A stretch of 52,819 nt of DNA from Promethearchaeota archaeon (GTDB taxonomy: Archaea > Asgardarchaeota > Lokiarchaeia > Sigyniarchaeales > SOKP01): contig JBHLPW010000037.1 in NCBI GenBank assembly GCA_048939015.1, forward strand, positions 1 to 52,819, given 5' to 3'. The notes under the pieces were generated by a model. The model had not been told where the DNA came from. It did not search any database and was given only the letters and a program-made list of their open reading frames with translations. The position numbers and the translations under genes were made by a program. This document shows, in pieces, positions 15,819 through 42,087 of the stretch; within the stretch, counting starts at the first letter, position 1; each line of letters begins with the position of its first letter.

Positions 15819-15985
15819 TATTGCTTAGGATTCTAAGTTCTATAATATTTCTATAATATTATCTCTTATTAAAAACGAAGAAAATCACAAAATTGTTAAA
15901 AGAAAAATAAATGAATTTAGTTATACAATAAAAATAAATAAAACTTATGTTATTATTCTTTTAAAGTTCCACGATTGATGCTAAA

Positions 15986-18058: not shown

Positions 18059-19399
18059 ATGTTTATAAAAGAAGAAATAAGTACTTTTAAAAAAAATAGA
18101 CCAAAAACAAGAGATATTTGGGAAAAAGCTCTAAAATTTCTGCCAGGTGGGATTTCTCATAATATACGTACCTTTGGACTGCCAATAATTGGAGCTTTCC
18201 CTATTTTTATTAAATCTGCTCATGGTCCTCATCTAATAGATATTGATGATATCAAATATATAGATTGTTGGAATGGGCATTTTGCTATGATACTAGGACA
18301 TAATCCTCCCGAAGTGCAAGAAGTTATAAAAAATTATCTGAATTATGGATGGCATTTTGGTACAAATACAGAATATCAAGTTGAGTTAGCAGAAAACATT
18401 GTAAAAAGAAATCCAGGAATCGAAAAAATGCGTTTCTGCACAAGTGGGACAGAAGCTACAATGTATGCTACTAGGCTGGCACGAGCGTTTACTAAGAAAA
18501 GATTGATTGCTAAGGCAGGATTAGGATGGCATGGTGCTAATGATACACTTTATTATGCGGTTGGAAGCTTAAATAGTGAAACATTTTCTCCTGGACTTCA
18601 AACTCCAAGGGATGCTGGAATAATAACTTTCGAAATCAACGATGAAAAAATATATGATATAGTTAAAAAAAATAAAGATGAATTAGCAGCCATAATTTTA
18701 GAGCCGATTTTAGGAGGAGGAGGTGGATTTCCAGTCGAAAAACAGTTCTTAAAAAAATTAAGAGAAGAAACTGAACGGTACAATATTCTGCTAATATTTG
18801 ATGAAGTAATTACTGGATATCGCTTTACTAATGCTTTATTTCAGAATGAAATAGATGTATTACCCGATTTAACCACGATGGGGAAAATTATAGGTGGAGG
18901 TATGCCAATAGGTGCTGTTGGAGGAAAAAGAGAAATTATTGAACAATCTAGTCCTGATGCAGAGAATCAAGTTTTAATAGGAGGGGGAACATTTTCAGGA
19001 TATCCATTGAGTATGATTGCAGGATTGAAAACATTAGAAATACTGAATGGGCGGCAAGAAGACTACATTCGAATAAATCAAGAAGGTGACAAATTATTAA
19101 ATAATCTTAACCAATTATTCAGCGAGGAAAAATTACCATTTATGGCCATTGGACATAAATCTATGATTATGCTTCATGCACTTTCAAAATGGATTGAAAA
19201 CCCTTCAATGAGACAAATTATTGAATTTAAAGATAAAAAACGAGAAGCACTTATTCAATTAGCACTCTTTAATAGAAATAATTCAGGTTTACATGGTTTG
19301 GGTTCTATTTCAATGGCTCATACTCATGATCACGTACGAAAAATTCAAGAAGTTATCAGAGAGATTGCAATTCCCGTCGCTCAATCCAAATTTGATTGA
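18059..19399 (+). CDS. Class III PLP aminotransferase, glutamate-1-semialdehyde aminomutase-like
   Basis: LPGGISH, ILGHN, RFCTSGTEATM, LIFDEVITGYR, TTMGKIIGGGMP (PLP Lys), GTFSG. Confidence 0.9.
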   Translation: MFIKEEISTFKKNRPKTRDIWEKALKFLPGGISHNIRTFGLPIIGAFPIFIKSAHGPHLIDIDDIKYIDCWNGHFAMILGHNPPEVQEVIKNYLNYGWHFGTNTEYQVELAENIVKRNPGIEKMRFCTSGTEATMYATRLARAFTKKRLIAKAGLGWHGANDTLYYAVGSLNSETFSPGLQTPRDAGIITFEINDEKIYDIVKKNKDELAAIILEPILGGGGGFPVEKQFLKKLREETERYNILLIFDEVITGYRFTNALFQNEIDVLPDLTTMGKIIGGGMPIGAVGGKREIIEQSSPDAENQVLIGGGTFSGYPLSMIAGLKTLEILNGRQEDYIRINQEGDKLLNNLNQLFSEEKLPFMAIGHKSMIMLHALSKWIENPSMRQIIEFKDKKREALIQLALFNRNNSGLHGLGSISMAHTHDHVRKIQEVIREIAIPVAQSKFD

Positions 19400-19466
19400 A
19401 ATTTTCATAAAAAATAAAGGAAATTTACAATTTTTGAAAAATATCAGTATTACTATTATTTGAAAA

Positions 19467-20501
19467 GTGAGTTTTTTGAGAAAGAAGTTTAATGTTATAC
19501 AAGTGGGATTAGGTCCTATGGGGATAATAATATCAAACCTTCTAGTTAAACGTGAAAATGTTCGGTTAATCGGTGCCGTAGATATTAATCCAAAGCTTGT
19601 AAATAAAAATTTAAGTGAATTCATTGAAATAAAAGATAAATCTGATGTTGTCATTCAGTCCACGTTAGAAAATGTCTATTCTGAAGAGAAAGTCGACGTT
19701 ATAATTATTGCTACATCATCTTCGCTAGAAAAAGTTGCTCCATTAATTAAACAAGCAGTTAAATCTGGAAGCAGTGTTATTTCTATTTGTGAGGAATTAT
19801 CATACCCTTTTCAACATTATCCAGAACTTTCTAAAGAACTAGATGAATTAGCAAAATCTTATAATGTATCTATAGTTGGAACTGGGATTAATCCAGGTTA
19901 TCTTATGGATTTATTACCAATTGTTGTCACAGCAGCTTGTCAGGAAGTAAGTTCACTTAAAGTAACGAGAATGATGAATTCAGCAAAAAGAAGAGAACCT
20001 TTTCAACGTAAAATAGGTACAGGGTTGACTACTGAAGAATTTCATAAAAAAATAAGTCAAAAGGAAATCACGGGTCATGTTGGTCTAACACAATCAATCC
20101 AAATGATTGTAGCAGCATTAGGTCTTGAATATGATGAGATTATAGAATTCCCCCCTAAAGAAATAATTACTGATAAAGAATTTACTACCTCTTATGGGGA
20201 GCAAATTCCAAAAGGATATGTCTGTGGTTTACAAAGTATAGCTATAGCTAAAAAGAGAGAAAAAGATATAATTTTCTTAGATTTTACAGCCTATGCTGGA
20301 AAACATGAAGAATTTGATAGTGTAGAAATAGAAGGCATTCCCAACATACACCAAAAAATTATTGGTGGAGTTCACGGGGATATCGGAACAGCTGCAATGG
20401 TGGTTAATTTGATTCCTAAACTAATAGAAGCTAAACCAGGTTTACTAACAATGAAAGATCTTCCCGTAGCATGTTATACGGAATATATATGGAAAACCTA
20501 A
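19467..20501 (+). CDS. 2,4-diaminopentanoate dehydrogenase (Ord)-like NAD(P)-dependent amine dehydrogenase (DapB-like N-terminus)
   Basis: QVGLGPMG Rossmann motif, VISICEELSYP, GTGINPGYLMD, GHVGL, GDIGTAA..KPGLLTM. Confidence 0.8.
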   Translation: MSFLRKKFNVIQVGLGPMGIIISNLLVKRENVRLIGAVDINPKLVNKNLSEFIEIKDKSDVVIQSTLENVYSEEKVDVIIIATSSSLEKVAPLIKQAVKSGSSVISICEELSYPFQHYPELSKELDELAKSYNVSIVGTGINPGYLMDLLPIVVTAACQEVSSLKVTRMMNSAKRREPFQRKIGTGLTTEEFHKKISQKEITGHVGLTQSIQMIVAALGLEYDEIIEFPPKEIITDKEFTTSYGEQIPKGYVCGLQSIAIAKKREKDIIFLDFTAYAGKHEEFDSVEIEGIPNIHQKIIGGVHGDIGTAAMVVNLIPKLIEAKPGLLTMKDLPVACYTEYIWKT

Positions 20502-20844
20502 CCTTATCTCTTTGGTACAGTCTATTAAACATTATAAGTGAAATTATATCTCTTCTATTCTTGTTATTAATGACATTTTTGTTAATTTAAATTTAACGAA
20601 AGTGTTAAATATACTTTTAGAACATTTATACTTAATTGTCGGAATGCCATAAAAAAGTATCAAAGAATATTGAATTTTATTATTAATGGAACGATTTAAA
20701 GGGAGATTTATAACTTATATTTAAGATTCAATTAACACAATATCATTAAATTAATTTTTGACTAATAACATTCATTATTCTTAGTTCAAAATTAAATTTT
20801 TGCTTGAAAATATATATATTACCAAAAATCTATGGGATGATAAT

Positions 20845-23800
20845 ATGAACTCACATTTAAAGAATAATAATAGAAAAAATAAGAAAAAATGTTATCCATT
20901 TGGAATTTTACATAATCTTAAGAAATCACGAATAAGATTACTTGTTTTATTCGCCATATTCTTGTTTTCAATAATTTTCATTATAGATTCACCAATAAAT
21001 TTTAACAGTAAACCCGAAGATTCACAGACTCCGACTGAAAAAAATCTGGAATTAAGTAATGAAGGAGACAACATATTCAAATTCAAATTAGCGATTAGTA
21101 ATAATCCCGTCACTATCGATCCTCATAATGTTTGGGATGTAAACTCTGGGTGTGTAATTGATCAAGTATGTGAGGGATTATACATGTATAATATATCTGA
21201 TCCAAATTACCCGATTATCCCAAATCTAGCAATAGCTAATGGTTCATGGTCAGTAGATAATTTAAATTATACAGTACCCTTGAGAACGGGAGTCACTTTT
21301 CATGATGGCTTTGGATTTAAGGCTATAGATGTTAAGCAATCTTTTAATAGATTACAGTATTTTATAAATGCCTCTGGTAATCTACCTTCAAATACTAGTA
21401 TTGCAGTAATGGAATCTTTGTATAAATTCCTTGATGGAACTCCTATTATAAATAGAACTGAAGTTATAAGTGATTATTCCGTTAGATTCGTATTAAATAG
21501 ACCATATGGCCCATTCCAAGCATTGTTGTGCTATTATAGTTCATATATTATTTCAACTAACTCAACGCCTAAATATAGTTATATTTCTCCATCTACAGGA
21601 GATCTTGTTGGAACAGGACCATTTGTTTATGATGGAGGCACAGCAGGAGAAGAAATAAGGTTCCACGCTTTTGATAATTATTGGAATGGTAAACCAGATA
21701 TAGAATTATTATATTTTAAAATAATGGGCTATGATAGGAACGATGCAATATTGAATGGGTCAATTGACTATATAACTAGTTTTGATATATCAATGCTTTC
21801 TGATTTCAATGCTAACCCTGATGTAAAAGTGGTTGACAATGACAACGATTTGGCAATATATTATTTATGTATGAATAACCAAAAAATAAATAAGACCTTC
21901 AGACAAGTAATCTCTTATTCAATAAATTATTCTTATATTACGGATAATGCACAGCAAGGATTTGCTGAGAGAGCAAAGTCTCCAGTTCCTCCTGGTATTT
22001 CATATTCTAATTGGTCCAATAATTATGCTATTTATAATGTGACTAAAGCGAGAGAGATTATGCAAAGTATGGGATTTGGTATTGGATGGGACACAACCTT
22101 TCCCGGCACTAGTGAGGCGAATTGGGCAAGTGCAAACTTTGTTTCATATAATTTCTCCTATTGGACAGGTAGTTCATTTCACACGGATTTATATACCCTA
22201 TTAAATGATAATTTAGAAAAAGTAGGGGTTGATGTTATTGATGGTGGTACCAGCTATGAATGGTATTTAACAATTTTTTATGGCACTAATCCCGGAGGAT
22301 ATAATGATATTGATCTTATGTATACAGGTTGGGGTCCTGATTTTAATGATCCAAGTAACATGATTAATCCTTTATTTTCAAATAATTCTGCTGCTAACAG
22401 GGGATTAACTAATGATCCATATTTACAAACTCTAATGGAACAGGGATTAAATGAGACTGAACCTTCTTTGCGTAAAGTAATCTATAATGAAATTCAAAAA
22501 TATTTAGTGGAGGATCTGATGCCAGTAGCATTTCTTTATGTTCAACGGAACTTTGATGTGTATCGCAATTATATCTTAGGATACCAATCGAACAAATGGG
22601 AAAAAATCTGGCTTCATGGAGTTACTCAAAATAGCTCTTTAGCTCCTCAAAAAATAAATATAAATGGGAATCAAGAATGGACGTATTTTAAAAACGCCGG
22701 GAAATGTACTGGTTCTGGTACTTATTCTGATCCTTATGTTATAGCAGATTTATTAATCGATGCGAATGGTTTTAGCAATGGGATCTTAATTAAAAACACT
22801 ACCGTATTCTTTAGAATAGAAAATTGTACGGTCTACAATTCTGGAAATGGAACGGATGACGCTGGTATTAAACTACAGCTAGTTAGTAATGGAAGATTAA
22901 TCAATAATAATGCTTCATATAATCACAGATTTGGGATATTGTTATATTATAATTATAACACCACAGTTTCGGGAAACTCCGCAAATAATAACGATGATAC
23001 AGGGATATATCTCCAAAATAGTAATAATAACACGGTTTCGGGAAACTCCGCAAATAATAATATTCTTAATGGAATTTATTTAATCTTTAGTAATAATACA
23101 AAAGTGGTTGGAAACTTATTAAACGGTAATGGTGTGTATAGCTATTTCGATTCTGATGGGAGTAATAATGTTTTTACTTGGAATGTTATTAATGGATTTG
23201 CTTATCCTTTTAATATTGATGATACTGGTGGGGGAGATTTCACCTGGGCTCAAGCTATTGATCAGTTAGCGTGGGTTACTGGCTCTGGTACATATTCTGA
23301 TCCTTATATTATAAAAGATTTAATAATTGGTGGGGCAAATTCTAGTAGTTGTATCTTCATTGAAAACTCCAATGTACATTCCAAGATTGAGAATTGTAGA
23401 GTATTCGATTCAAGTGCGACGTGGCCATATGCAGGAATCCAATTATTTAATGTAAGCAACTGTCAAATAGTTGATAATAACTGTTCTAATAATAATGGTC
23501 GCGGTATAACATTAGCAAATTGTAATAATAATACAGTAAATGGAAACACATTATACCTAAATGGTGATCATGGTATAGGACTATATTCCTCGAATAACAC
23601 TGTTATCTCAGGTAACACAGCATATTATAATAATTATGATGGAATCTCCATATATCTAAGTACCATGAATACTCTTTCCGGAAACAATGCATATGATAAC
23701 AATTATGACGGAATCAGAATATGGAAGAGTAATAATAGCTCAATTTCAACTAATACCATCTATTCTAACACTCAAAACGGGATATCTCTATGGAAGAGTA

Positions 23801-26217
23801 ATAGTTCAACAATCTCGGGTAATACTATATATGATAATACTTATAGAGGTATAAGATTAGAACATTCAAATAATATTGATGTAACAGGTAACAATGTATA
23901 CAGCAATGATGAAGATGGAATATTATCTTATTGGTGTGATAATATTGAGATTTCAGGAAACACCGCAAATAACAACAATTGGCATGGGATAATTTTAGAC
24001 AATACGGATGGTAATGTAGTAATGAGAAATACTTTCAATAACAACAATGAACGTGGGATTTGGATAGAAAATTGCGCTAATACGGAGGTCATTGGGAATA
24101 TTTTAAATGGTAATTCTGGGGGTACTTATTATGAAAGTGGTTCAAACAATGAATTTTTAGCAAATCTAGCTAACGGTTATATAAATCCTATTGTTTTTGA
24201 TGATAGCGGAGGAGGAGATTTTACTTGGACAGAAGCTACTAGTCAAATAGCTTGGTTCAGTGGTTCAGGTACTGGTGCTGATCCTTATATTATTGAAAAT
24301 ATAATTATCAATGCTCAAGGTTCTGGTAGTTGCATTGAGATAATAGGCTCTAATGATTATCTTATTATAAGAAACAGTAAATTTACCAATTCTGGGAGTG
24401 GAACTCTACCACATGATGCAGGAATTAGAATGGAATCTGTTACTGGTATAACCGAATTAAATAATGTGAATTGTTCAAATAATGGAGCTGATGGAATATA
24501 TCTACTATCCTGTTCTAGTATTACTATAAAGGATAGTACAATAAATAACAATGATTTAAATGGGATTGCGTTATACAATAGTGGTTATAATTATATTGAA
24601 GATAATGATAATACTATTAATTATAATGAGGCTAGTGGGATTTACTTAAGCGCAGCGCATAATAATGAGATTGATGGAAATACGATAAATTATAATGGAT
24701 ACGGTATTTTTGTTGATGGTTCCATGTACAATAATATAGATAACAACGATTTAAGATATAATATCGGTGGAGGATATAAAGAAATTGGTGATAGTTCTGG
24801 TAATATCTTTGGTCCAGGTAATATCCTTGATCCTGTATCAGATAATATGTTTTGGATAATCATTATAATCATAGCATGCATAATTGCTTTAGTAGCAATC
24901 ACTATTGTGGTAGTTTTAAAGAAAAGATCAGCTGTTCCTAAGAAGGTAAAGGAAAAGAAACCTGAGATTTCATTAGAAGAAAGGACAGCGATGACAATTT
25001 TAAAAGAAGAGAAGCGAAAAGAAAAACAAAAACTAAAAATGGAAGAAAAGGGAAGAAAAGTAGAGGCTGAACTCCTAAAAAGAATGTCAACTGTTGATTT
25101 TCTAATAAAGGAAGATAAATTTGAAATCGCACTTAAAAGTTTAGTTAGAATAAAAGAAGAAGCGCAAACTCATAGAATCGCAGACATTACAACTAAAGCT
25201 GAAGAACGTATAGATTTATGTAAAAAATTAGGGGAGGAAAGGAAAGAACAAGAAAGAATAATAGAAGAAGAAAGATTACGAGAGGAAAAACAAAAAGAAG
25301 AGGAGAAATTAGAAAAAGAAAGATTAAAAGAAGAAGAACGAAGAAAGAAGGAAAAACTAAAAGAAGAGGAGAGATTGAAGGAAGAAAGGCAACGAACCTT
25401 AGAAAAAGAAGCGAAAATTAAGGAAGAATTTGAAAAGAGAATAGCAAATGTAGAATACTTTATTAAAGAAAATAAAACAGAAATGGCTATTAAAGTATTA
25501 CTTAAGATTCAAGAAGAGGCTCAAGCTCAAGGCTTTGAAGATATTGTGAATAGTGCAGAAGAAAAATTAATTGAATACAAAAAATTACAACTAGAAACTG
25601 TTAATCGAATTAAGCAGACAATTTTAACCTTAGGGGCGAAATTTACTCGTCTACAGCTCCTTGATATAAGTGAGAAAAGCGGTATTCAAGATGAAGCTCT
25701 GATTGAGAACATTATTCATGAGATGATCAGAAATAAAGAAATTTCTGGCGAATATTTTGAGAGTTCGAAAGCGCTTGCGTTGGAAGCAGCAGCACCTGTG
25801 AAAATAGAGGAAAGCGTAGGGAAACATAATGTCTTTATTAGTTATTCTACTTTAGATACAGATTACTTTCAGGTCTCAAAAATTGTACGTCGATTAGAAC
25901 TATATCCCGAAATAAATCAAGTTTTGTTCTGGGAAGTCGATAGTAAACAAAATATTGTAGAATTTATGGAAGAGACTCTTAGAAAGACTAACGCGTTTAT
26001 ATTATTTTGTTCTGAACATTCTATAAAGTCCCAAGCCGTAAAAGGTGAATGGATGTCAGCTTATCAAATGCTTAAAAAAGGATTGATGAAAATCATTCCT
26101 GTATATGAAGATGAAGACCATATTCCTAGATTGTTATGGCAAATGCTAAATGTAAAATATACGAAAGATGACTTCGAAGGATTTATCCAAAAACTTTATG
26201 AAGAAATCATAAGATAA
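20845..26217 (+). CDS. Predicted membrane receptor: signal/TM - SBP family 5 - NosD-like beta-helix modules - TM - helical/coiled-coil - PCI-like wH - TIR
   Basis: IDP..VCEGL..PNLA, LRTGVTFHDG, VGTGPF, GWGPDFNDP (SBP5). GSGTxxDPY-capped PbH1 repeats. TM MFWIIIIIIACIIALVAITIVVVL-KKR. HNVFISYS..FILFCS..AVKGEW TIR. ORF track start is TTG 20800. Confidence 0.85.
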   Translation: MNSHLKNNNRKNKKKCYPFGILHNLKKSRIRLLVLFAIFLFSIIFIIDSPINFNSKPEDSQTPTEKNLELSNEGDNIFKFKLAISNNPVTIDPHNVWDVNSGCVIDQVCEGLYMYNISDPNYPIIPNLAIANGSWSVDNLNYTVPLRTGVTFHDGFGFKAIDVKQSFNRLQYFINASGNLPSNTSIAVMESLYKFLDGTPIINRTEVISDYSVRFVLNRPYGPFQALLCYYSSYIISTNSTPKYSYISPSTGDLVGTGPFVYDGGTAGEEIRFHAFDNYWNGKPDIELLYFKIMGYDRNDAILNGSIDYITSFDISMLSDFNANPDVKVVDNDNDLAIYYLCMNNQKINKTFRQVISYSINYSYITDNAQQGFAERAKSPVPPGISYSNWSNNYAIYNVTKAREIMQSMGFGIGWDTTFPGTSEANWASANFVSYNFSYWTGSSFHTDLYTLLNDNLEKVGVDVIDGGTSYEWYLTIFYGTNPGGYNDIDLMYTGWGPDFNDPSNMINPLFSNNSAANRGLTNDPYLQTLMEQGLNETEPSLRKVIYNEIQKYLVEDLMPVAFLYVQRNFDVYRNYILGYQSNKWEKIWLHGVTQNSSLAPQKININGNQEWTYFKNAGKCTGSGTYSDPYVIADLLIDANGFSNGILIKNTTVFFRIENCTVYNSGNGTDDAGIKLQLVSNGRLINNNASYNHRFGILLYYNYNTTVSGNSANNNDDTGIYLQNSNNNTVSGNSANNNILNGIYLIFSNNTKVVGNLLNGNGVYSYFDSDGSNNVFTWNVINGFAYPFNIDDTGGGDFTWAQAIDQLAWVTGSGTYSDPYIIKDLIIGGANSSSCIFIENSNVHSKIENCRVFDSSATWPYAGIQLFNVSNCQIVDNNCSNNNGRGITLANCNNNTVNGNTLYLNGDHGIGLYSSNNTVISGNTAYYNNYDGISIYLSTMNTLSGNNAYDNNYDGIRIWKSNNSSISTNTIYSNTQNGISLWKSNSSTISGNTIYDNTYRGIRLEHSNNIDVTGNNVYSNDEDGILSYWCDNIEISGNTANNNNWHGIILDNTDGNVVMRNTFNNNNERGIWIENCANTEVIGNILNGNSGGTYYESGSNNEFLANLANGYINPIVFDDSGGGDFTWTEATSQIAWFSGSGTGADPYIIENIIINAQGSGSCIEIIGSNDYLIIRNSKFTNSGSGTLPHDAGIRMESVTGITELNNVNCSNNGADGIYLLSCSSITIKDSTINNNDLNGIALYNSGYNYIEDNDNTINYNEASGIYLSAAHNNEIDGNTINYNGYGIFVDGSMYNNIDNNDLRYNIGGGYKEIGDSSGNIFGPGNILDPVSDNMFWIIIIIIACIIALVAITIVVVLKKRSAVPKKVKEKKPEISLEERTAMTILKEEKRKEKQKLKMEEKGRKVEAELLKRMSTVDFLIKEDKFEIALKSLVRIKEEAQTHRIADITTKAEERIDLCKKLGEERKEQERIIEEERLREEKQKEEEKLEKERLKEEERRKKEKLKEEERLKEERQRTLEKEAKIKEEFEKRIANVEYFIKENKTEMAIKVLLKIQEEAQAQGFEDIVNSAEEKLIEYKKLQLETVNRIKQTILTLGAKFTRLQLLDISEKSGIQDEALIENIIHEMIRNKEISGEYFESSKALALEAAAPVKIEESVGKHNVFISYSTLDTDYFQVSKIVRRLELYPEINQVLFWEVDSKQNIVEFMEETLRKTNAFILFCSEHSIKSQAVKGEWMSAYQMLKKGLMKIIPVYEDEDHIPRLLWQMLNVKYTKDDFEGFIQKLYEEIIR

Positions 26218-26286
26218 AAAATCTACGAAATTCAACTTTTTTTTTTATAAATAACAAGAATGTTCAATAAGGAGGAGTTAATAAAT

Positions 26287-28440
26287 TTAAAAATCCATTT
26301 TCTTTTTAACAACTTTAAAGTTTATCCAATTTACTAATTCTTCAACCCCGTTTGTAATTGCATTTGATGCGAATTCACCTAAAGTAATTTTAGTGATTGA
26401 TTTTACAAATTTTAACCATTTTGGGGGTTTAAATAACTTATAATAGTTAAGAGTATCCATAACAATTTTAGCCCATTTATCTTTTTCTTCATCTGTCCAA
26501 TCTGGATTTTTAATAACTTTATAAATAACTCTATTCAACTCTTTAGGTTTTTCAATTATTATGCTTAATGTTTCTCTAATCTTAGACTCGTCTAAATAAT
26601 AAATGACATCTTGAACTTTTTGAGTATCACTTTTTATAGACTCAAGTTTGATACTGATATCTTTCATAAGATCAGTTGTCTTTTCAATCTTATCACTTAA
26701 AGTCTGTATTTCTACCTCTGATCCTCCCTCAAATTGTCTCATAGCTACTGATACAGCCACATCTTGCTTATCATAAAGACCTTGAGCTAAACCTTCTAAT
26801 CTCCTAAATCCACTTTCTTGAGCCTCCTTGATTTCCTGAAGAAGAGCAAAATTACATTCCTCAATATTTTTCTTCACAATTGTCTCTATTTCCAATGGAT
26901 TTAAACTACTATCGATTTTCATTGTTCTGCCTTGCATATTTTCCACTTTTCTCTTGAATTCTTCTCTGGAAATCAACTTAGGTACAAGTAAGTTACAAAC
27001 ATAACAGATCTCAAAAGGCTCAATCTTTACAGTATGTATTTTACCAAAATGATCAGTATAATTGACATTTCCTTTAATTTCACTACCAACACAATTATCA
27101 GTAGCATATAACTTATATGCAGGAGAAACCTCATCATAGGGATTTAACTTTAAAAACTCAATTAATTTATCCATTCGTAATTCTAATCCAGGAGGTATAT
27201 CACCGAAAATTACTTGTATATTAGAGATAACATATTGGGATAAATTTTGAATTTTTACTTTGTAATGAAATACACTCTGATTTCCTTCTATTTTCCAATC
27301 TCCCCCTCTTAACAGTTTTATGTTTTTACTTCTATAATCACCTATGTTTAACGGTATCGGTGGTACCTTTATAGGTTTAGAGAATGTCTCTACCTCTTCT
27401 CTTTTGAATACTACTTTTTGACTCTTAATTTGAGCATTAATTTCTTTGTTAAGAATCATTTCTTCGATGATTGGTTCTAATTCTTCTACATTAAGCCCTG
27501 TCTTTTCTGCGACTTTTTCAATCGTAATTTCACTGTATATAGAAGGCAACTTCTTGAGATAGTTAATGGTATGTAGTTTTTCTCGTTCCTTCATTTCTTT
27601 TTGGACTTTTTGCTGACAATATTCAACAAATTTCTGAGGTGTATTTGCTTCACCTCTTTGATTTAGGCCTCCTAATTTTTCAATTAATTTATTGGAAATT
27701 TGACTACCTTTAAGATTTAGAAATTTTAAATTAGTCAAAGTTTCTAAACCTTTAATTTCTCTTATTAAATTATTACTTAAGTTTAGGACTCTCAATTTAA
27801 TGAGTCTATTTAATCCTTGAATCTCGGAAATTTGATTATCAGCAATATTTAATTCCCTTAAATTAGTAAGATTTTCCAAACCACTTATTTCTGCTATTTT
27901 ATTTTTATTGAGAGTTAGTCTTTCTAAATTAATAAGAAGATCTATACCTTCAATTTGAACAATTTGATTATTTTTTAAGTCTATTTCTTGTAGATTAGAA
28001 CATTTTTCTAATCCTTTTATTCTTATAATTTTATTATTACTAATATTTAACTCTTGCAGATTGGTTAAAGATTCTAAACCTTTAATCTCATTAATTTCGT
28101 TTTGATGCAGATTTAGTATTTTTAAATTAGTGAGAGAATTTAACTTTTCTATGTTAACAATTTTATTGTGTCTTAAATTTAGCCATTGTAAATTATTTAG
28201 GTCTCTCAATCCTTCAATTTGAGTGATTGAGTTACTACTAAGTTCTAATACTTTCAAATTTTTTAGCCCTTCTAGGCCTTCAATCTTACCAATGTTATTT
28301 CTATCAAGATATAATACTTGTAAATCAGTATATTTCTTTAAGCCTTGTATTTCAGTAATATCAGTAATATTTTTTGAATGCAGATCTAATTTACCACTTT
28401 TGATTTCGTGTTTCTCCTCATCTAATATAACATATACCAT
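26287..28440 (-). CDS. SDS22-like LRR + PCI-like winged helix + coat appendage-like (Ig + platform) protein
   Basis: About 10 LxxLxLxxNxIxxIxGL repeats. YSEITIEKVAEKTGL..IIEEMILNKEINAQI (PCI). YKVKIQN..IKGNVNYTD..LLVPKLISREEF (appendage/platform-like). Confidence 0.8.
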   Translation of the reverse strand: MVYVILDEEKHEIKSGKLDLHSKNITDITEIQGLKKYTDLQVLYLDRNNIGKIEGLEGLKNLKVLELSSNSITQIEGLRDLNNLQWLNLRHNKIVNIEKLNSLTNLKILNLHQNEINEIKGLESLTNLQELNISNNKIIRIKGLEKCSNLQEIDLKNNQIVQIEGIDLLINLERLTLNKNKIAEISGLENLTNLRELNIADNQISEIQGLNRLIKLRVLNLSNNLIREIKGLETLTNLKFLNLKGSQISNKLIEKLGGLNQRGEANTPQKFVEYCQQKVQKEMKEREKLHTINYLKKLPSIYSEITIEKVAEKTGLNVEELEPIIEEMILNKEINAQIKSQKVVFKREEVETFSKPIKVPPIPLNIGDYRSKNIKLLRGGDWKIEGNQSVFHYKVKIQNLSQYVISNIQVIFGDIPPGLELRMDKLIEFLKLNPYDEVSPAYKLYATDNCVGSEIKGNVNYTDHFGKIHTVKIEPFEICYVCNLLVPKLISREEFKRKVENMQGRTMKIDSSLNPLEIETIVKKNIEECNFALLQEIKEAQESGFRRLEGLAQGLYDKQDVAVSVAMRQFEGGSEVEIQTLSDKIEKTTDLMKDISIKLESIKSDTQKVQDVIYYLDESKIRETLSIIIEKPKELNRVIYKVIKNPDWTDEEKDKWAKIVMDTLNYYKLFKPPKWLKFVKSITKITLGEFASNAITNGVEELVNWINFKVVKKKMDF

Positions 28441-28618: not shown

Positions 28619-31600
28619 ATGTTTATCACCTTATTGGATGGCGAAAAAATGAAAAGTAAAAAATTAACTTTTATAATCTTATTAATTTTAATCCTATTTC
28701 AATCTATAATAGGATTAATTAATTTTAATTTAAATAGTGGGCAAAAAAGTGAAGTTGAGAAAGTCGTTCCAGAAATTTCTGACATTATTGTTGGGAATTA
28801 CACATTTCCAGGATATTCAGGCTCGGTTGATTTAAATAACTCGATTAGAATTGGGTTACTTCACGATAAGAATAATGTTTTAGGTGATCATAATTGGAAA
28901 GGAGCATTTTTGGCAGCTAAAGAGATTAATGAAGCTGGAGGTATTATTATTAACAGCACAGCATTCAAAGTAGGACTTGTAGCTGAAGATACAAATGAAA
29001 ATAATGAAACATTAGACGTATCTAAAGGGCTTGACGCTGCAAATAGAGTAATATCTTATGATCCTCATTGCATTATAGGGGGATATAGAAATGAATCATT
29101 ATCAGCTTATCTAGAGCTAATAATGAACGCAAAAATCCCTTTTTTAAGTACAGGAGTCGCACAAGATGAATTTTGTCAAAATGTTTTAAATAATTATGCT
29201 AAATACAAGTATTTCTTTCGAGTTATGCCATACAATTCAACTAATATTGGTATAGAAACGATTAATCATTATCTTTGGCAGATATTTGTTTTGAATAATA
29301 GTTATTCTGGTTGGCTTAAAAATGTCACAATTCTTAGGGAAAATCTAACTTGGTCTGTAGGCTTGAGTAATGCTCTTCAGCAAATTTTACCTATTTATGC
29401 AAATTTCCTTAATCCTATCACAGAAATTAATATTTCAACTTCAATAACATATTCAGAAATGGAGGATATCTGGGAACAAATCAATGCATCAAAAGCTCAG
29501 TTAGTAATTCCAATATTCTCTTCAAATGCCTCAATAAATGTATCAAAAGCTTATGCGGCTGTTCAACCAAAATGTCTAATGATGGGTATAGATATCAAGT
29601 CTCAGATCAATGATTTTTGGGACAATACTGAGGGGACATGCCAATATGAGGCGGTATTTCAGGCTGTTTACAATATTTCTAAAACATCTAAAACTATGCC
29701 TTTTTGGAATAATTTTGTCAATGAATATAATATAGAACCCTATTATACAGGAATTGGTGCTTATGAAGCAGTTTATATGTTAGCAAATGTGAGTAAAACT
29801 TCTCAATCTTTAAAACCTAATGATATAATCTCTGGATTAGAGGGATTTGATAAGGATAATCCTTTTATTGGTCCTTCCAATAGAAAAGCTTTTTGGGGAT
29901 CACACGATTTAGTTTATGGTTATCCTTATGCTTATGGTCTATGGTGCCAATGGCAATTAGACGGAAAAAAAGTGGTTATTCATTCCGATAATAACTATCC
30001 TGGTTCAATACCAACAGGTAGCTTATCTTTACCATATTGGGGAATTCATGATCTGACCGTGGCTCAAGATATTCCAGAACCCTTTACATTATCTAGTAAT
30101 GCTGGCAAGCCAGATTCAGATGGATCATTTGATCTGACTTGGACAAACTCAAATGGGGCAGATAGTTATTCTGTTTATATGTATAATAAAAATATTTCAT
30201 ATGTAAGTAAAAGATTCGCTTTAAAATCTTATAAAGACGTAAGTTCTCCATTTCCCATATCTGGATTAAGGACTGGAGACTATTACTTTATAGTCGCGGC
30301 ATACAATGGAACAGGTGAGAGACTATCTAACAATATCTACGCTGAAGTAGACAATAGACCTGGAATTTTCACACTTAGTAAAGATGCAGATTTTCCCGTA
30401 GATACTAACGGGAGCTTTAACTTAACTTGGTCTGATTCGGATGGTGCAGATAATTATTCTATTTATAGATATAATAGATCTATTACAGAGATAAATGAAA
30501 GTCTGACTATCGAAGCAGATCAAACAGCAACTTCTCCTTTTCCTATCACGGGTTTATTAGACGGGAAGTACTATTTCGTAGCTGTAGCATATAATGGAAC
30601 TGGAGAAAGACTATCCAATATTGTCAATGTAACAGTAGATCGACCTGGACCGGGCAGTTTCACGTTAGATACTGATGCTGATGCTCCCGATAAAGATGGA
30701 ACATTCAACTTAAACTGGACTGCATCTAAAAATGCAGACAATTATTCTATTTATAGATATAATAGATTTATTACAGAGATAAATGGAAGTCTGACTATCG
30801 AAGCAAATCAAACAGCAACTTCCCCATTTCCAATCACAGGTTTATCTACTGGAAATTACTATTTCGTAGTCGTAGCATATAATGAAACTGGTGAAACATT
30901 ATCCAATAATGTTAATGTTACAGTAGGAATACCTCCTGGACAATTTACTTTATCTTCAGATGCAGTTACTCCTTTTGATATAGATGGTATTTTCAACTTA
31001 AACTGGACAGAATCAGCTGGGGCTGATAATTATTCAATTTATCAGTTTTCAAGCTATATTACTCATATAAACGATAGTCTCATTCCACTCATGATTGCAA
31101 CAACTAATAAGTCATTCCAAATTACGGATTTACCGACTGGATTTTATTATTTTATTGTTGTTGCTAACAATAGTTTTGGTTATCGGCTTTCGAATTGTAT
31201 TAACGTTTCTGTTCAAATTTATAACAATTTAACTGGATATTGGATAATAAACCCCTTGCTGATTGATAATACAGGTACTGGAGATTACACATGGCAAGAA
31301 GTTGTGATTTTTCCCTGGTGTTCAGGTTCTGGAACATTAGTTGATCCATATGTAGTCGCGTTCATTAATATTAATGGTTTGAATTTGAATAATTGCTTAA
31401 CAATTAGAAATTCTAATGTATATTTTAGAGTTATAAATTGTATATTTTATAATTCAAGTGATAATGTTAATGATGGTGGAATTAAATTAATCTCCACTTC
31501 AAATGGAGATTTAATCCAAAATAATTGTTCCTTTAATAACGCAAATGGAATAGTCGTAGATTCTTGTAATAATATATTGATAAGAGACAGTTCCATTAAT

Positions 31601-32710
31601 CACAATGAAATATCTGGGATAGTATTAATTGATAGTACTAATATCCATATCATTTTTAATACAGAAACAATAAATTCTAATGAGCTTTATGGTATTCATC
31701 TATTTAATAGTCATTATAATAATATTACAGGTAATACGATAAACTATAATGAAATAGGAATATTCCTTGAATCATCTAACTACAATTTAGTTGACTTGAA
31801 TAATTTATTATATAATGGTCAATCACATTTAGATAATGGTATTGGAAACGATATTACACTTAATAATATTTTTCCAGAGATCTCTGGGAGATTTCCTTTT
31901 GATCTTTTAATTATTATTCTAATAATCTGTTTAGTAGTTGCGGGAGTAGTAGGTGCAGTTATAATAGTCAAGAAGAGAACATCTACATCTGGAATGAAGA
32001 AAAAGGAAATAAGTGATAAGAAAAGGCAAAAAGTAAGAAGAAAACTCGAAGCTAAATTAATTTTTGTTGATGAACTTATAGAAGAAAGAAATATCAAATC
32101 AGCTTATAAATATTTAGGTAAAATACAAGATACTGCAGATATGCATGACTTTTTTGATATCTTTAATTCTGCAACAAAAAAAATTGAAGATTGTAAGAAT
32201 ATTCAACAAGGAATTTATGAAGAAGTTAAAAGAGCATCAATAATTACTCCCGTAGTACCAAAAACCTTAGAAGAAGAACAGATTACCGCTATATCTGAAA
32301 CAGCAGAAACACCAAAACACAATATATTTATCAGTTATTCTACTATAGATTCAGAACATTTTCAAATAAATAAAATTGTAAAAAAACTTAAAAAATACTC
32401 TGATATTGATAAAGTCCTATATTGGGAAAAAGACAGTAAAGAAAATATCGTTGAATTTATGGATAGAACTCTGCAAGAAAGTGATGTTTTTATTTTATTT
32501 TGCAGTGAAAGATCAATTCAATCTGCAGCTGTAAGTGATGAATGGCAGGCAGCATTTCAACGTAGAAAAAAAGGGTTAATTAAAATGATTCCAGTTTATG
32601 AAGATGAAAAACATATTCCTCCCATTCTTGGGCATTTATTAAATGTAAAATACACAAAATTCGATTTCGATACCTTTATTGAAAAACTTCATAGAGAAAT
32701 TTTAAGGTGA
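28619..32710 (+). CDS. Predicted membrane receptor: signal/TM - type I PBP (Venus flytrap) - 4 FN3-like repeats - beta-helix - TM - helical - TIR
   Basis: IRIGLL..GAFLAAKEINEAGGI..YFFRVMP..AYEAVYML (LIV-BP family). Four F-x-L-x-W..ADxYSxY..G-x-YYF-x-V-x-A-x-N repeats. TM LLIIILIICLVVAGVVGAVIIV-KKR. TIR HNIFISYS..AVSDEW. Alternative start ATG 28649. Confidence 0.85.
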   Translation: MFITLLDGEKMKSKKLTFIILLILILFQSIIGLINFNLNSGQKSEVEKVVPEISDIIVGNYTFPGYSGSVDLNNSIRIGLLHDKNNVLGDHNWKGAFLAAKEINEAGGIIINSTAFKVGLVAEDTNENNETLDVSKGLDAANRVISYDPHCIIGGYRNESLSAYLELIMNAKIPFLSTGVAQDEFCQNVLNNYAKYKYFFRVMPYNSTNIGIETINHYLWQIFVLNNSYSGWLKNVTILRENLTWSVGLSNALQQILPIYANFLNPITEINISTSITYSEMEDIWEQINASKAQLVIPIFSSNASINVSKAYAAVQPKCLMMGIDIKSQINDFWDNTEGTCQYEAVFQAVYNISKTSKTMPFWNNFVNEYNIEPYYTGIGAYEAVYMLANVSKTSQSLKPNDIISGLEGFDKDNPFIGPSNRKAFWGSHDLVYGYPYAYGLWCQWQLDGKKVVIHSDNNYPGSIPTGSLSLPYWGIHDLTVAQDIPEPFTLSSNAGKPDSDGSFDLTWTNSNGADSYSVYMYNKNISYVSKRFALKSYKDVSSPFPISGLRTGDYYFIVAAYNGTGERLSNNIYAEVDNRPGIFTLSKDADFPVDTNGSFNLTWSDSDGADNYSIYRYNRSITEINESLTIEADQTATSPFPITGLLDGKYYFVAVAYNGTGERLSNIVNVTVDRPGPGSFTLDTDADAPDKDGTFNLNWTASKNADNYSIYRYNRFITEINGSLTIEANQTATSPFPITGLSTGNYYFVVVAYNETGETLSNNVNVTVGIPPGQFTLSSDAVTPFDIDGIFNLNWTESAGADNYSIYQFSSYITHINDSLIPLMIATTNKSFQITDLPTGFYYFIVVANNSFGYRLSNCINVSVQIYNNLTGYWIINPLLIDNTGTGDYTWQEVVIFPWCSGSGTLVDPYVVAFININGLNLNNCLTIRNSNVYFRVINCIFYNSSDNVNDGGIKLISTSNGDLIQNNCSFNNANGIVVDSCNNILIRDSSINHNEISGIVLIDSTNIHIIFNTETINSNELYGIHLFNSHYNNITGNTINYNEIGIFLESSNYNLVDLNNLLYNGQSHLDNGIGNDITLNNIFPEISGRFPFDLLIIILIICLVVAGVVGAVIIVKKRTSTSGMKKKEISDKKRQKVRRKLEAKLIFVDELIEERNIKSAYKYLGKIQDTADMHDFFDIFNSATKKIEDCKNIQQGIYEEVKRASIITPVVPKTLEEEQITAISETAETPKHNIFISYSTIDSEHFQINKIVKKLKKYSDIDKVLYWEKDSKENIVEFMDRTLQESDVFILFCSERSIQSAAVSDEWQAAFQRRKKGLIKMIPVYEDEKHIPPILGHLLNVKYTKFDFDTFIEKLHREILR
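30070..31220 (+). repeat. Four tandem FN3-like coding repeats of about 290 bp
   Basis: Near-identical DNA at 30452 and 30740 (period 288 nt). Confidence 0.8.
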
Positions 32711-36738: not shown

Positions 36739-37656
36739 TTGAGAACAATGCTTAAAAAAACTATCCTTTTTGATCTTACTCATAATGAAATGTTAAACGT
36801 TGACGAGGAAGAATTTAAAGATTTCATTAATCTTTTAAAGCAACTAGATTTAAAGATTAAAAAGAATGAGAATGGAGATTTAACAAAACAAACATTAGAA
36901 GATATTGATCTAGTGGTTATTGGTAATCCAATTGATGATTTCTTTTCTAGTTTAGAAATAAAGCAAATTGTTGACCATGTAAGAAGTGGAGGAGGACTCA
37001 TAATTTTAAGTGAATATGGGGCAGATTTTCTCCAAAAAACTAATTTAAATGATCTAACTGGAAAATTTGGTATTTTTTTTGATAAAAATTTAATTAAAGA
37101 AAAAAATAAATCAAACCAAAATTGCACAAGCATTCTGCATATTCAAGACTTTTCAAAACATCAAATGACAAAGAATCTAAGAGAAATGAAAATTGGTGGG
37201 GCATGTTCTTTAAACCTGAGTAAAGACGCAAAAATCTTACTACATTCAAATGAGCATTCAGTTTGGTCTGAAGTTTATAATAACACTACTGAAGAATGGA
37301 TGAAACAAGAGGAGAAAGAACATATTATCGCAGCGTACACAGAATTTGGGCAAGGAAAAGTCGTAGCAATGGGTGATATTGATATTTTTACTTCAAATTC
37401 TAAATTTGGGATCAATGCTCTAGATAATAGAAAATTTATTCAAAATCTGATTAATTGGGTAATAAATCCTGTTAAAGAATCTAAGGTAATTTCATTTTTA
37501 CTTAATCAAATTGGTGATCTTCATTATGAAATTAGAGAAACCAACAAGGTGTTGAACAATATTATAGAAACTTTAACAATTTTAGAAAAAAGGATTACAT
37601 ACTTAGAAAAAGACTCAAAATTATATTTAGAAGCATTAGATCAAGAAGAACATTAA
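36739..37656 (+). CDS. GIFT (GldG/IFT52-like, DUF4350) domain + C-terminal coiled coil
   Basis: ILFDLTHNE, DLVVIGNP..FSSLEIKQI..GGGLIIL, GQGKVVAMGDIDIF..DNRKFIQNLINW; heptad C-terminus. Confidence 0.7.
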   Translation: MRTMLKKTILFDLTHNEMLNVDEEEFKDFINLLKQLDLKIKKNENGDLTKQTLEDIDLVVIGNPIDDFFSSLEIKQIVDHVRSGGGLIILSEYGADFLQKTNLNDLTGKFGIFFDKNLIKEKNKSNQNCTSILHIQDFSKHQMTKNLREMKIGGACSLNLSKDAKILLHSNEHSVWSEVYNNTTEEWMKQEEKEHIIAAYTEFGQGKVVAMGDIDIFTSNSKFGINALDNRKFIQNLINWVINPVKESKVISFLLNQIGDLHYEIRETNKVLNNIIETLTILEKRITYLEKDSKLYLEALDQEEH

Positions 37657-39436: not shown

Positions 39437-40630
39437 TTAATTACCAAACTTTCTTTCTAAAATATCTTCCAATAATTCAACTAGTTTGATTGAAGGAATA
39501 TCCAATAGTGTTATTTCTAAATGTCTTCCTCGAGTAGCTTCTTCAATACGTACAGTCTTGGAAGCTATAATCTTTAAAGTAGTAAGTTGGCGAACATATT
39601 TCCTAAAACTCATCTTAACATGAGGTTCAATAGAATAATTCTCACAAATTGCATTATATTCTTCAAATGCATCATCTACTAAAGTAAAAGGTTCTTCAGT
39701 ATTAATTAAGGATCGAGTTATCCCGTATAACGCTAAAAGCTCTTGATCTTTTAATTGATCAACAATATCATTTCTGAAAGTAGGATACACGTCATTTGAT
39801 GCTTCTCTAATAATATCTGCTGTAATTCGATCGAGACCTTCTTTATCGCAGAATGAGCCACTTTTTCTTAAGATTTCAATACCATGTCTCATGTTTTTAT
39901 GCTCAGTTACGATTTGCGATACCATTGTTAGAAGTTCTTCATTTACAACGTTTTCTTTAAATGCCAAATCACTTCTATATTCTAAGATTTTCATCGATTC
40001 ATCAAAATCATAAGGTTTAAGTTTAATTTTTTCATTTATTCTGCTTAATATTCTTTCATTTTCAATTTTCATCCAATCTTTACTTCTAGAAATTAACAGT
40101 AAGGATAATTTTGCATTTTGATGCCCAAATGTTTCAGCAATGTCTAAAAACGCAAGTACATCATCTTGTTTTAAAAGATGAATTTCATCAATAATTAAAA
40201 GCATGTAACCTTTTTCCCGAATTAATTGTGAAAGAATTAACTTTAAAGCTTCATCATCTGAGAAACCACGACCGCTACCATGTTGGTATTTAGCCAATAA
40301 CTCTCTAATAATCTTGCTTTTGGATCGGAAATTAATACAATTAAAATACTCTAAAAATAATTTGATATCTTTTTCAATCGCTATAGTTCTAAAATTTTTC
40401 CCAAAATACCGTGCTGTACATGTTTTTCCAACACCTCCTTTCCCTAGGACTAAACAATTAACAGACGGTTGTTCTTTTTCATCAACAATTCTTCTAAAAT
40501 TAAAAATTAACGTTTTTAAAGCATCATCACGGCAATATAACTTTTCAGGTACGTAACTTAAATCTAGAGAACTCGCTTGTCTAAAAACTGATTTTTTCAT
40601 GAATTGTTTTCTGAATTCATCTTCGTCCAT
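39437..40630 (-). CDS. cdc6: Orc1/Cdc6 replication initiator
   Basis: LSYVPEKL..R, Walker A GKGGVGKT, YFNC, Walker B IIDEIH, PY..IL..R, C-terminal winged helix. Confidence 0.92.
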   Translation of the reverse strand: MDEDEFRKQFMKKSVFRQASSLDLSYVPEKLYCRDDALKTLIFNFRRIVDEKEQPSVNCLVLGKGGVGKTCTARYFGKNFRTIAIEKDIKLFLEYFNCINFRSKSKIIRELLAKYQHGSGRGFSDDEALKLILSQLIREKGYMLLIIDEIHLLKQDDVLAFLDIAETFGHQNAKLSLLLISRSKDWMKIENERILSRINEKIKLKPYDFDESMKILEYRSDLAFKENVVNEELLTMVSQIVTEHKNMRHGIEILRKSGSFCDKEGLDRITADIIREASNDVYPTFRNDIVDQLKDQELLALYGITRSLINTEEPFTLVDDAFEEYNAICENYSIEPHVKMSFRKYVRQLTTLKIIASKTVRIEEATRGRHLEITLLDIPSIKLVELLEDILERKFGN

Positions 40631-40996
40631 GGCAAATCGATAAATTCTGATTTAAAATTTTGAATAATATGTATTAAAAGATCAATCTAAGTATAAATTT
40701 TCTTATACTACCTAAATCATATTTCTTCTATAAAAAATTTTTTAGTCAAAAAATTAATTTACGACAAAAATTTGTTCAGATTATTGAGACGTTGCATCAT
40801 TAAACAAAAAAGCTTTAACATAAATACACAATGTTTTATAAGAAATTATCAAATTAAGGATTTATACAAAAGAAAACAAGATTTATCTTTGTTTATAATT
40901 AATCGTGATATTTATACAAATATTAATCTTCTTAACAGATTTTTATATAATTTGAATACTATCTTATTCTGAAATACTAAATAGGAAATTCTAATT

Positions 40997-41134
40997 ATGA
41001 TGAAATTTATTCGTAAGAAATTAAATCGAAAATACAAAAAAGAAGAATTAATTAAACGATATGAAGAACAGAAATTAGCGCTTGATAATGGTATCAAAAG
41101 AAATCAATCTGTTTGTGGCGGTTTAGGTCATTAG
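40997..41134 (+). CDS. Possible 45-aa small protein (MMKFIRKKLNRK..VCGGLGH)
   Basis: ATG..TAG ORF translated by hand, below the ORF-track cutoff; AGGA about 10 nt upstream. Confidence 0.3.
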   Translation: MMKFIRKKLNRKYKKEELIKRYEEQKLALDNGIKRNQSVCGGLGH

Positions 41135-41163
41135 AGATTACTTATTAAAAGAATATATTTTAT

Positions 41164-42087
41164 TTACAACTTTTCTAAATTATTTAAGGGATGCATCTGA
41201 GAATAGGACTCTTTTAACTTAGTTATATCATTTTTGGCATAAATACGGGTAGTATTTGGGCTTGAATGTCCTAAAATATCTTGTAATTCACTAATATCCA
41301 TGCCAGAGCGTCTTAGATGAGTTGCTCCAGTGTGTCTGAACACATGCGGGGTAATTACCTTAGAAGTAGCAAACCCACATTTTTCTTTAATTGTTTTAAT
41401 GTCTGTCTGTACAACTCGGGGACTTAATTGTTGGTTCCTAGTATTAACTAACAAAAAATCTTCAGAATCATAAATTATCCTATTTTTAAGATTTTCTTCA
41501 AAAATTTCTAATGTTTTCTGATCCACAGGTACAATTCTCTCTTTATTTCCTTTTCCTCGAAGTCTGATATAACCTCTCTCAAAATCTATATCTCTAATTT
41601 TTATGTTACATAATTCACTTACTCTGGCCATAGTAGAATACAATAATCTGATAATTAAATAATATCTACTGCTTCTACGAGAGTTGAACAATTTCCGGTC
41701 TTTCAATTTTTTAAAAATTTCTTCCATATCGGAGATTCTTAGAAATTTCGGTAAACTTTCTTCAAGTTTAATTTTAGGAGTTTTAATTGTACTCATAGGA
41801 TCTTTTTCCATAAACTCATTTAAAGTTAAAAATTTAAAATATGAACGAAGAGAAGCGATTTTTCTCCCAATCCCCTTTTTAGTATAATCTAAATCATTTA
41901 ATTTCTTTAAAAATAAACGTATTTTTTGGCGTAGTAGGGGAGAATTAATTTGTAAGTCCCCTACAAGCTCGATAAATTTCTGAAGATCATAATGGTATGC
42001 CTTAATAGTGGAGGAAGCACATCCTTCTTCAACTTCTTTCGCAATCAAAAAATCCTCAATAAAATCGGAAATTTTGTAGTTTTCCAT
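41164..42087 (-). CDS. xerA: XerA/XerC-type tyrosine recombinase
   Basis: SAM-like N-terminus (TIKAY..DL), ARVSEL, GKGNKER, TPHVFRH, LGHSSPNTTRIY. Confidence 0.9.
   Translation of the reverse strand: MENYKISDFIEDFLIAKEVEEGCASSTIKAYHYDLQKFIELVGDLQINSPLLRQKIRLFLKKLNDLDYTKKGIGRKIASLRSYFKFLTLNEFMEKDPMSTIKTPKIKLEESLPKFLRISDMEEIFKKLKDRKLFNSRRSSRYYLIIRLLYSTMARVSELCNIKIRDIDFERGYIRLRGKGNKERIVPVDQKTLEIFEENLKNRIIYDSEDFLLVNTRNQQLSPRVVQTDIKTIKEKCGFATSKVITPHVFRHTGATHLRRSGMDISELQDILGHSSPNTTRIYAKNDITKLKESYSQMHPLNNLEKL

Follow-up and report, generated by a model that had tools for sequence, protein, structure and literature searches.

How does an archaeon come to carry a gene that joins a Venus flytrap binding domain, a fibronectin type III (FN3) stalk and a TIR domain, and what might the encoded protein do? 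The gene lies at positions 28619–32710 (+) of a 52,819-nucleotide stretch of contig JBHLPW010000037.1 (the window) from a Promethearchaeota genome (GCA_048939015.1; 4.86 Mb in 125 contigs). An earlier note on this DNA, made from the sequence alone, saw in it a flytrap and FN3 ectodomain resembling eukaryotic receptor design, set on a single-pass TIR protein in an archaeon. Our analysis suggests that this receptor was put together within Lokiarchaeia from local archaeal parts, its head and stalk being those of surface solute-binding proteins, and that its likeness to eukaryotic receptors lies in layout rather than in kinship. The archaeal host is supported by the homologues, all named ones of which come from metagenome-assembled genomes (MAGs) of Promethearchaeota (Lokiarchaeia), Thorarchaeota or Hodarchaeota; Cdc6/Orc1 and further genes of archaeal type are present in the window as well.

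The gene is a single uninterrupted open reading frame (ORF) of 1363 amino acids (aa) on the forward strand; the public gene call of the same protein (P0002) begins at a Met ten codons downstream, at 28649, and is 1353 aa long. A hydropathy scan finds an N-terminal hydrophobic segment, a signal peptide or signal anchor (aa 16–38; 28664–28732), which is followed by a type I periplasmic-binding-protein (PBP) head, the Venus flytrap, of the LivJ/Peripla_BP_6 type (aa ~76–480; 28844–30058; delimited by Pfam, AlphaFold2, Foldseek and VIA) and by four FN3-like repeats (aa 487–582, 583–677, 680–774 and 775–870; 30077–31228; Pfam and repeat analysis). Next come a NosD-type right-handed beta-helix with the N-terminal cap motif W..GSGT..DPY (aa ~871–1090; 31229–31888; Pfam NosD at 1.1e-13, Beta_helix, and NCBIfam para_beta_helix) and, again from the hydropathy scan, a transmembrane helix with KKR after it (aa 1096–1118; 31904–31972). 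The cytoplasmic part consists of a juxtamembrane three-helix bundle (aa 1133–1196; 32015–32206) and a TIR_2 domain (aa 1234–1362; 32318–32704) with an invariant glutamate, Glu1308, encoded at 32540–32542. The earlier note's ectodomain of flytrap plus FN3 is thus right as far as it goes, both modules being present, but it overlooked the beta-helix between the FN3 repeats and the transmembrane helix, where Pfam NosD/Beta_helix models match at aa ~929–1084 (E 1e-13). All 40 N-x-S/T sequons fall in aa 40–1095, where composition predicts 19 (Poisson p = 2e-5), and the 241-aa tail has none. Because every sequon lies between the two hydrophobic segments and KKR follows the transmembrane helix, the large part is placed outside the cell and the TIR domain inside. 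The gene encodes an intact membrane protein with a large, sequon-rich extracellular part. Its description as single-pass holds for the one transmembrane helix at aa 1096–1118, but the N-terminal segment may add a second anchor; if it is left uncleaved, the protein would be held in the membrane at both ends.

The fold of the head can be assigned with some precision. Its sequence matches Pfam Peripla_BP_6 (PF13458) over aa 76–421 at 50.8 bits, above the cut-off of 31.7, and ANF_receptor (PF01094) at 22.4 bits, below the cut-off of 25.4. An AlphaFold2 model of aa 40–494 has a mean predicted local distance difference test (pLDDT) score of 90.3 and a predicted template-modelling (pTM) score of 0.89, and superposes on 3h5l with a VIA Z of 35.8 (root-mean-square deviation 2.9 over 370 residues) and on 4gnr with a Z of 35.2. 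In a combined Foldseek and VIA-align comparison the 46 top structural matches are prokaryotic LivJ-type binding proteins (Z 35.8–30.1); the first eukaryotic match, the amino-terminal domain (ATD) of GluK3, comes at rank 47 (Z 29.9), and the GABA-B and mGlu flytraps score within that lower range too. The solved chains among these matches are 11–19% identical to the head, and sequence searches of the PDB find branched-chain-type binding proteins only, and weakly (E 0.002 with the single sequence, 7e-9 with a profile). The subfamily is narrow, with 745 relatives at E ≤ 0.001 among 1.84 billion representatives. The nearest stand-alone relatives of the head are from Promethearchaeota, and the next are binding proteins of Desulfobacterota.

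Where the head came from is best seen in a tree of Asgard and bacterial sequences, rooted on the bacterial relatives. The earlier note had asked for a phylogeny of the PBP domain that also took in eukaryotic ANF-receptor domains; our tree of Asgard and bacterial heads, together with the Pfam scores and the structural ranking, takes the place of that comparison. In it the head nests within Asgard solute-binding proteins, with the bacterial ones as outgroup, and sits in a wholly TIR-linked clade (15 heads, support 97). This clade adjoins anchor-only clades whose members consist of the head, 2–5 FN3 repeats and a PGY-hydrophobic-basic tail, one anchor-type relative being named a Loki-CTERM sorting domain protein by NCBI. 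Surface binding proteins of Lokiarchaeia with this PGY-transmembrane-basic anchor at their end are ordinarily tethered by such an FN3 stalk, and the genome itself holds a further head paralogue with two FN3 repeats, a transmembrane helix and a short tail without a TIR domain. The head and FN3 module of the receptor is the same module from which the C-terminally anchored solute-binding proteins of the Lokiarchaeial surface are built. Two further TIR-linked head groups arise separately in the tree, on which TIR and anchor forms must have switched at least four times; the head has been joined to the chassis of beta-helix, transmembrane helix and TIR domain at least three to four times.

The chassis, in turn, accepts different heads. 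A search with the tail only (aa 1119–1363) matched Asgard proteins only, nearly all of them with a beta-helix and TIR_2, and the heads on these matches were Peripla_BP_6, SBP_bac_5, beta-propeller repeats or none. Seven of the 11 TIR_2 genes of the genome have the chassis, three of those seven with binding-protein heads. Of 251 genomes sampled across the phylum, 30 have the tail module, and 25 of these are among the 54 from the family to which the window belongs. Some proteins stack their heads: this binding-domain subfamily is present in three tandem copies in a 1426-aa protein from a Promethearchaeota MAG (P0050) and in two copies in each of P0036 and P0038, and SBP_bac_5 and Peripla_BP_6 heads are combined in P0032 and P0043–P0047. 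The domains of close relatives also differ from one another in their distance to the receptor. P0003 is 90% identical in the head (85–92% through FN3 repeat 3), 63% in FN3 repeat 4, 56% in the beta-helix, 53% in the transmembrane and juxtamembrane region and 89% in the TIR domain; P0007 and P0008 are 50–51% identical in the head, 73–76% in FN3 repeat 4, 55–65% in the beta-helix, 74% in the transmembrane and juxtamembrane region and 88–90% in the TIR domain. Such mosaic identities point to recombination between family members. The TIR domain and three-helix bundle are 52–90% conserved among relatives.

The stalk has a history of its own. It is made of four tandem 96-aa repeats (aa 487–870) with a 288-nucleotide period; repeat 3 matches Pfam fn3 (PF00041) at 38.9 bits against a cut-off of 25, gapless pairwise amino-acid identities are 37–65%, and each repeat matches a profile built from these four. 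FN3 copies 2 and 3, which the earlier note had called nearly identical in DNA, share 82% identity over 238 nucleotides, with a longest exact run of 28. In a tree of repeats, the first and last cluster by position, the middle ones have been duplicated independently in several proteins, and copies 2 and 3 of the receptor each pair with the same-numbered copy of P0003. Since same-numbered copies pair, the duplication that gave rise to copies 2 and 3 predates the split from P0003, the closest relative. The stalk is indeed plastic, TIR forms having from 1 to 5 repeats, but the recent expansion proposed by the note is not borne out for this pair. The WSxWS motif of cytokine receptors is absent from the entire protein.

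Could the architecture be an artefact of assembly? We considered a collapsed or misjoined assembly, which the earlier note had named as what would overturn its reading, and rejected it on the grounds of even GC content, repeats that are 82% alike, conserved synteny and the same architecture in independent assemblies. Two homologues that are complete, at 1363 and 1358 aa, and come from independent assemblies (contigs of 45 and 63 kb) have the same architecture with four repeats; a third, cut N-terminally on a 4.3-kb contig, has four repeats as well. Collapse of short reads is unlikely because the FN3 copies are only 82% alike and the architecture recurs in these assemblies. In another genome of the same genus (G017) the gene order is aminotransferase, 2,4-diaminopentanoate dehydrogenase, receptor, PHO4, PhoU-like, DUF2284, PurA and a GIFT-domain gene. 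The upstream pair and the five directly downstream genes stand in the same order in the window; in G017 they directly flank the orthologue, whereas in the window a gene for an SBP_bac_5 and TIR protein and one for a leucine-rich-repeat and PCI (LRR-PCI) protein lie between the upstream pair and the receptor. The positional orthologue of G017 (L031:9200–12804, contig 49) has two FN3 repeats. Its reading frame is broken in the signal-anchor region, the mark of either a pseudogene or an assembly error, and its longest ORF sets in close to where the binding domain begins.

Does the head still look able to bind a small molecule? We aligned the head family with E. coli LivJ and LivK (annotated K-12 record). 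In this alignment, at about 15% identity, the receptor differs from LivJ at every one of the nine contact positions, and LivJ Y18, S79, A100, T102, Y150, Y202 and E226 correspond to L, N, G, A, W, S and D. Two of the changes are conservative (Tyr150 to Trp and Glu226 to Asp), and at five of the nine positions the receptor retains residues that are conserved throughout the subfamily (G, W, S, N/D and T). The framework of the cleft thus appears to be retained, and the contact residues do not allow the identity of a ligand to be inferred. The residue aligned with the LivJ contact Ser79 belongs to a sequon, Asn158-Glu-Ser, at 29090–29098, and Asn occupies this position in 8 of the 15 heads of the TIR-linked clade; if Asn158 is glycosylated, a glycan could sit in the binding cleft.

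On the inner side, AlphaFold2 models the tail as a three-helix bundle (aa 1133–1196), a low-confidence linker (aa 1202–1228) and a TIR fold (aa 1234–1362), in agreement with the Pfam TIR_2 match at aa 1236–1356 (E 1.6e-15). The TIR model matches TIR domains of all kingdoms about equally, with Hydra TRR-2 as the top Foldseek match, tied with SPARTA, SARM1 and AbTIR, and with RPS4 and MyD88 among the others. Sequence profiles discriminate further: a profile of the 11 TIR domains of the genome matches enzymatic TIR domains of bacteria best, with 7uxr at 3.6e-11, Cat1 at 6e-11 and AbTIR at 4e-8, and TIR domains of Toll-like receptors at about 1e-4. Glu1308 is invariant in all 11 TIR paralogues and aligns with the Glu of DWTNYEL in AbTIR and of DWCWDEL in Cat1, which we take to be the catalytic residue of NADase TIR domains. 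The only LSDAT_prok (SLOG) gene of the genome, an 881-aa frame with the domain at 33294–33755 of contig 21, lies about 2 kb from a TIR gene (C21:35840–37900), with two more TIR receptors nearby on that contig; its product could act in trans, and nothing links it to the receptor gene studied here.

What the receptor does can be proposed from these parts. We tentatively prefer to read it as an outside-in solute sensor with a TIR output, and give this reading somewhat less than an even chance. A small solute, likely an amino-acid-like nutrient or a small polar compound akin to one, would close the flytrap head; closure would alter the pairing or clustering of receptors, so that three-helix bundles and TIR domains associate; and the associated TIR domains would cleave NAD+ into a signalling nucleotide, or nucleate a scaffold, for a partner encoded elsewhere in the genome. 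Cultured relatives live on amino acids and peptides and have a glycosylated binding protein as their dominant surface protein (PMC11284389), and sister receptors have peptide-type heads, all of which makes a ligand of the nutrient type plausible. A wider proposal, that Lokiarchaeia run a TIR pathway from the outside in, with modular receptors that report solutes or contacts outside the cell, ligand-driven assembly of enzymatic TIR domains and a nucleotide read by a SLOG-type protein encoded elsewhere, seems to us rather doubtful as a whole. The sensor reading draws support from the topology, from the LivJ-type fold of the head and its five retained pocket residues, from the 40% identity of the head to the stand-alone binding protein beside the only LivH/LivM permease pair of the genome, from the modular make-up of head and chassis and from the invariant Glu of the TIR domain; the SLOG protein would be a possible reader. 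Several other observations weigh against it. The equivalent of LivJ Ser79 is Thr or Ser in 90 of 96 stand-alone relatives and is Asn158, within the N-E-S sequon, in the receptor, and pocket positions in the TIR clade are not preferentially conserved (0.73 against a domain average of 0.72). In the TIR domain, the Trp of the WxxxE motif, four residues upstream of Glu1308, is Ala in all receptor-type paralogues, although two soluble TIR paralogues of the genome keep it; the conserved Glu is retained in some animal scaffold TIR domains too, and by itself does not prove NADase activity. PADLOC gives no match, no effector or reader gene (SLOG, Macro or SIR2) is present in the window, and the adjacent LRR-PCI gene has no full-length orthologue in the 18 same-genus genomes searched. 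The tail module is patchy even within the genus, and the receptor evolves fast, being 53–59% identical to its counterpart in G017 in every domain against 63–86% for the flanking genes, both of which would also fit a conflict system.

Those last two points lead to the main rival, which we think unlikely, though a serious competitor: a surface guard or decoy against viruses, whose head would copy abundant anchored binding proteins that viruses likely dock on, and whose clustering upon virus contact would lead the TIR domain to deplete NAD+ or produce an alarm nucleotide in a response like abortive infection. In its favour, the head has close paralogues among the anchor-only surface binding proteins, and the receptor family, present in multiple copies, is a fast-evolving mosaic of patchy distribution. 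The TIR domain is closest to bacterial enzymatic defence TIR domains, and one position has drifted in a pocket that is not preferentially conserved; yet the five family-wide pocket residues are kept, the gene matches no PADLOC model, and it has no adjacent effector and stands between housekeeping genes in conserved synteny rather than in a defence island. Roles in transport or structure are less likely than this. As a tethered substrate-binding protein the receptor would feed the single LivHM-type ATP-binding-cassette (ABC) importer of the genome, its TIR tail being a secondary regulatory or clustering addition; its closest relatives are annotated as, and built like, ABC substrate-binding proteins, the single LivH/LivM (BPD_transp_2) permease pair of the genome follows directly on the gene of its cognate, a stand-alone binding protein with 40% identity to the head, and the surface of a cultured relative is dominated by glycosylated binding proteins tethered to the membrane (PMC11284389). 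That permease pair is on contig 12, however, and no LivHMGF-type permease genes are found in the window; a stalk of about 600 aa (four FN3 repeats and a beta-helix) would keep the head far from any membrane permease, and the conservation of TIR domain and three-helix bundle argues that the tail is what matters most in the protein. We consider this role improbable, and give the same small chance to a structural or adhesive envelope protein for contact between cells or with a partner, in which the TIR domain would serve as an intracellular oligomerisation scaffold only. Such a role would suit the beta-helix and FN3 modules, which typify surface and adhesion proteins, and the high density of sequons, and the cultured relative showed no S-layer protein (PMC11284389). 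Adhesion, however, would not need a flytrap that is complete and well folded and whose pocket framework is conserved, and the family is missing from many of the same-genus genomes searched. Least probable by far is direct evolutionary kinship with, or ancestry to, the flytrap receptors of eukaryotes (class C G-protein-coupled receptors (GPCRs), ionotropic glutamate receptors (iGluRs) and natriuretic-peptide receptors), cytokine receptors or Toll-type receptors. The host is an Asgard archaeon, and the fold class is shared, with GABA-B, mGlu and iGluR domains among the structural matches; against it stand the rank of the eukaryotic domains below 46 prokaryotic binding proteins, the subthreshold ANF_receptor score and missing WSxWS motif, the place of the head in an Asgard-specific radiation with a bacterial outgroup, its few relatives among the 1.84 billion representatives, the preference of the TIR profile for bacterial TIR domains, and an architecture that arose repeatedly by shuffling inside one archaeal family.

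The surroundings of the receptor gene add some further observations. A second TIR receptor is encoded at 20800–26217, with an SBP_bac_5 head, five beta-helix stretches, a transmembrane helix and TIR_2, and the LRR-PCI protein at 26287–28440 is divergently transcribed; the whole block (20800–28440, about 7.7 kb) is missing from the syntenic locus of G017. We considered the LRR-PCI neighbour as a conserved adaptor and rejected it for this receptor, given its absence from that locus and the lack of a full-length orthologue in the 18 same-genus genomes searched. Directly upstream of the block, at 18059–20501, lie genes for a class III aminotransferase and a 2,4-diaminopentanoate dehydrogenase (ornithine/lysine fermentation type), and the adjacency of amino-acid catabolism to an amino-acid-type sensor may be a coincidence. 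Elsewhere in the window, a Cdc6/Orc1 gene adjoins a gene for a tyrosine recombinase of the Xer type at 39437–42087 (−), possibly a replication-origin neighbourhood, and four loci have domain matches of eukaryotic flavour: HeH/LEM, just below cut-off (9386–10495, −), HEAT repeats (8664–9290, +), LURP-one-related with a zinc ribbon (10709–11413, −) and IFT52 GIFT-like (36739–37656, +). A 666-aa ORF and two tandem paralogues of about 440 aa (12369–14369, −, and 14493–17308, +) are essentially without Pfam matches, the only one being a terminal zinc ribbon in one of them. Scans of the window for tRNA genes and Rfam families gave no match.

To our knowledge, all known prokaryotic TIR systems sense intracellular events, and TIR domains coupled to extracellular ligand-binding domains have been known only from animals. 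Our search of the literature outside subscription journals turned up no account of Asgard membrane TIR receptors; sequences of the family are present in public databases under generic names. What appears to be new here is a head and FN3 module that derives from anchored surface binding proteins and has repeatedly been fused to a TIR chassis. New too are the mosaic pattern of identities and the positional orthologue with two repeats. If binding heads are indeed coupled to a conserved TIR tail in these proteins, the receptor-style use of TIR domains would not be an animal invention, and Asgard archaea would build surface receptors by shuffling heads, stalks and chassis. The receptor offers a concrete object for testing this, with a soluble head for ligand screens and a 245-aa tail for NAD+ chemistry.

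Set beside known systems, the receptor is closest to the anchored surface binding proteins of Lokiarchaeia, which share the head and an FN3-like stalk at 45–50% identity, have the same N-terminal signal anchor and form sister clades in the head tree; they end in the short PGY-transmembrane-basic (Loki-CTERM) tail, whereas the receptor continues into a beta-helix, transmembrane helix, three-helix bundle and TIR domain. LivJ/LivK-type (cluster B) proteins have the same two-lobe fold, but the receptor lies outside a permease operon and is fused to a stalk, transmembrane helix and TIR domain. AbTIR, Cat1, Thoeris ThsB and the TIR-APAZ protein of SPARTA share the TIR_2 family and the aligned Glu and provide the best PDB profile matches; the receptor differs from them in its membrane anchor, large ectodomain, Trp-to-Ala change and lack of an adjacent effector. 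Bacterial sensors such as the flytrap kinase BvgS and the amide sensor AmiC re-use a transporter-type binding fold as input, and AmiC is among the structural matches of the head; their output is a histidine kinase or an antiterminator in bacteria, and that of the receptor is a TIR domain in an archaeal host.

The comparison with eukaryotes returns to the question with which we began. Animal Toll-like and IL-1 receptors, including Hydra TRR-2, have the same topology of an ectodomain, one transmembrane helix and a cytoplasmic TIR domain, but their ectodomains are leucine-rich repeats or immunoglobulin (Ig) domains where the receptor has a PBP, FN3 repeats and a beta-helix. By sequence profile the TIR domain of the receptor is nearer to bacterial enzymatic TIR domains than to those of Toll-like receptors, and no MyD88-like adaptor was found. 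The architecture was assembled independently of the animal receptors, within Lokiarchaeia. Class C GPCRs, iGluR ATDs and natriuretic-peptide receptors have the same type I PBP fold as their outer module, with Z of about 30 to iGluR ATDs; the eukaryotic flytrap receptors end in seven transmembrane helices, a channel or a cyclase rather than a TIR domain, and the receptor shows no specific phylogenetic affinity to them. Of the proposed resemblance to eukaryotic receptor design, the layout remains, but specific kinship does not, given the ANF_receptor score, the first eukaryotic match at rank 47, the head tree and the missing WSxWS motif. The likeness to eukaryotic flytrap and cytokine receptors appears to be convergent, not ancestral.

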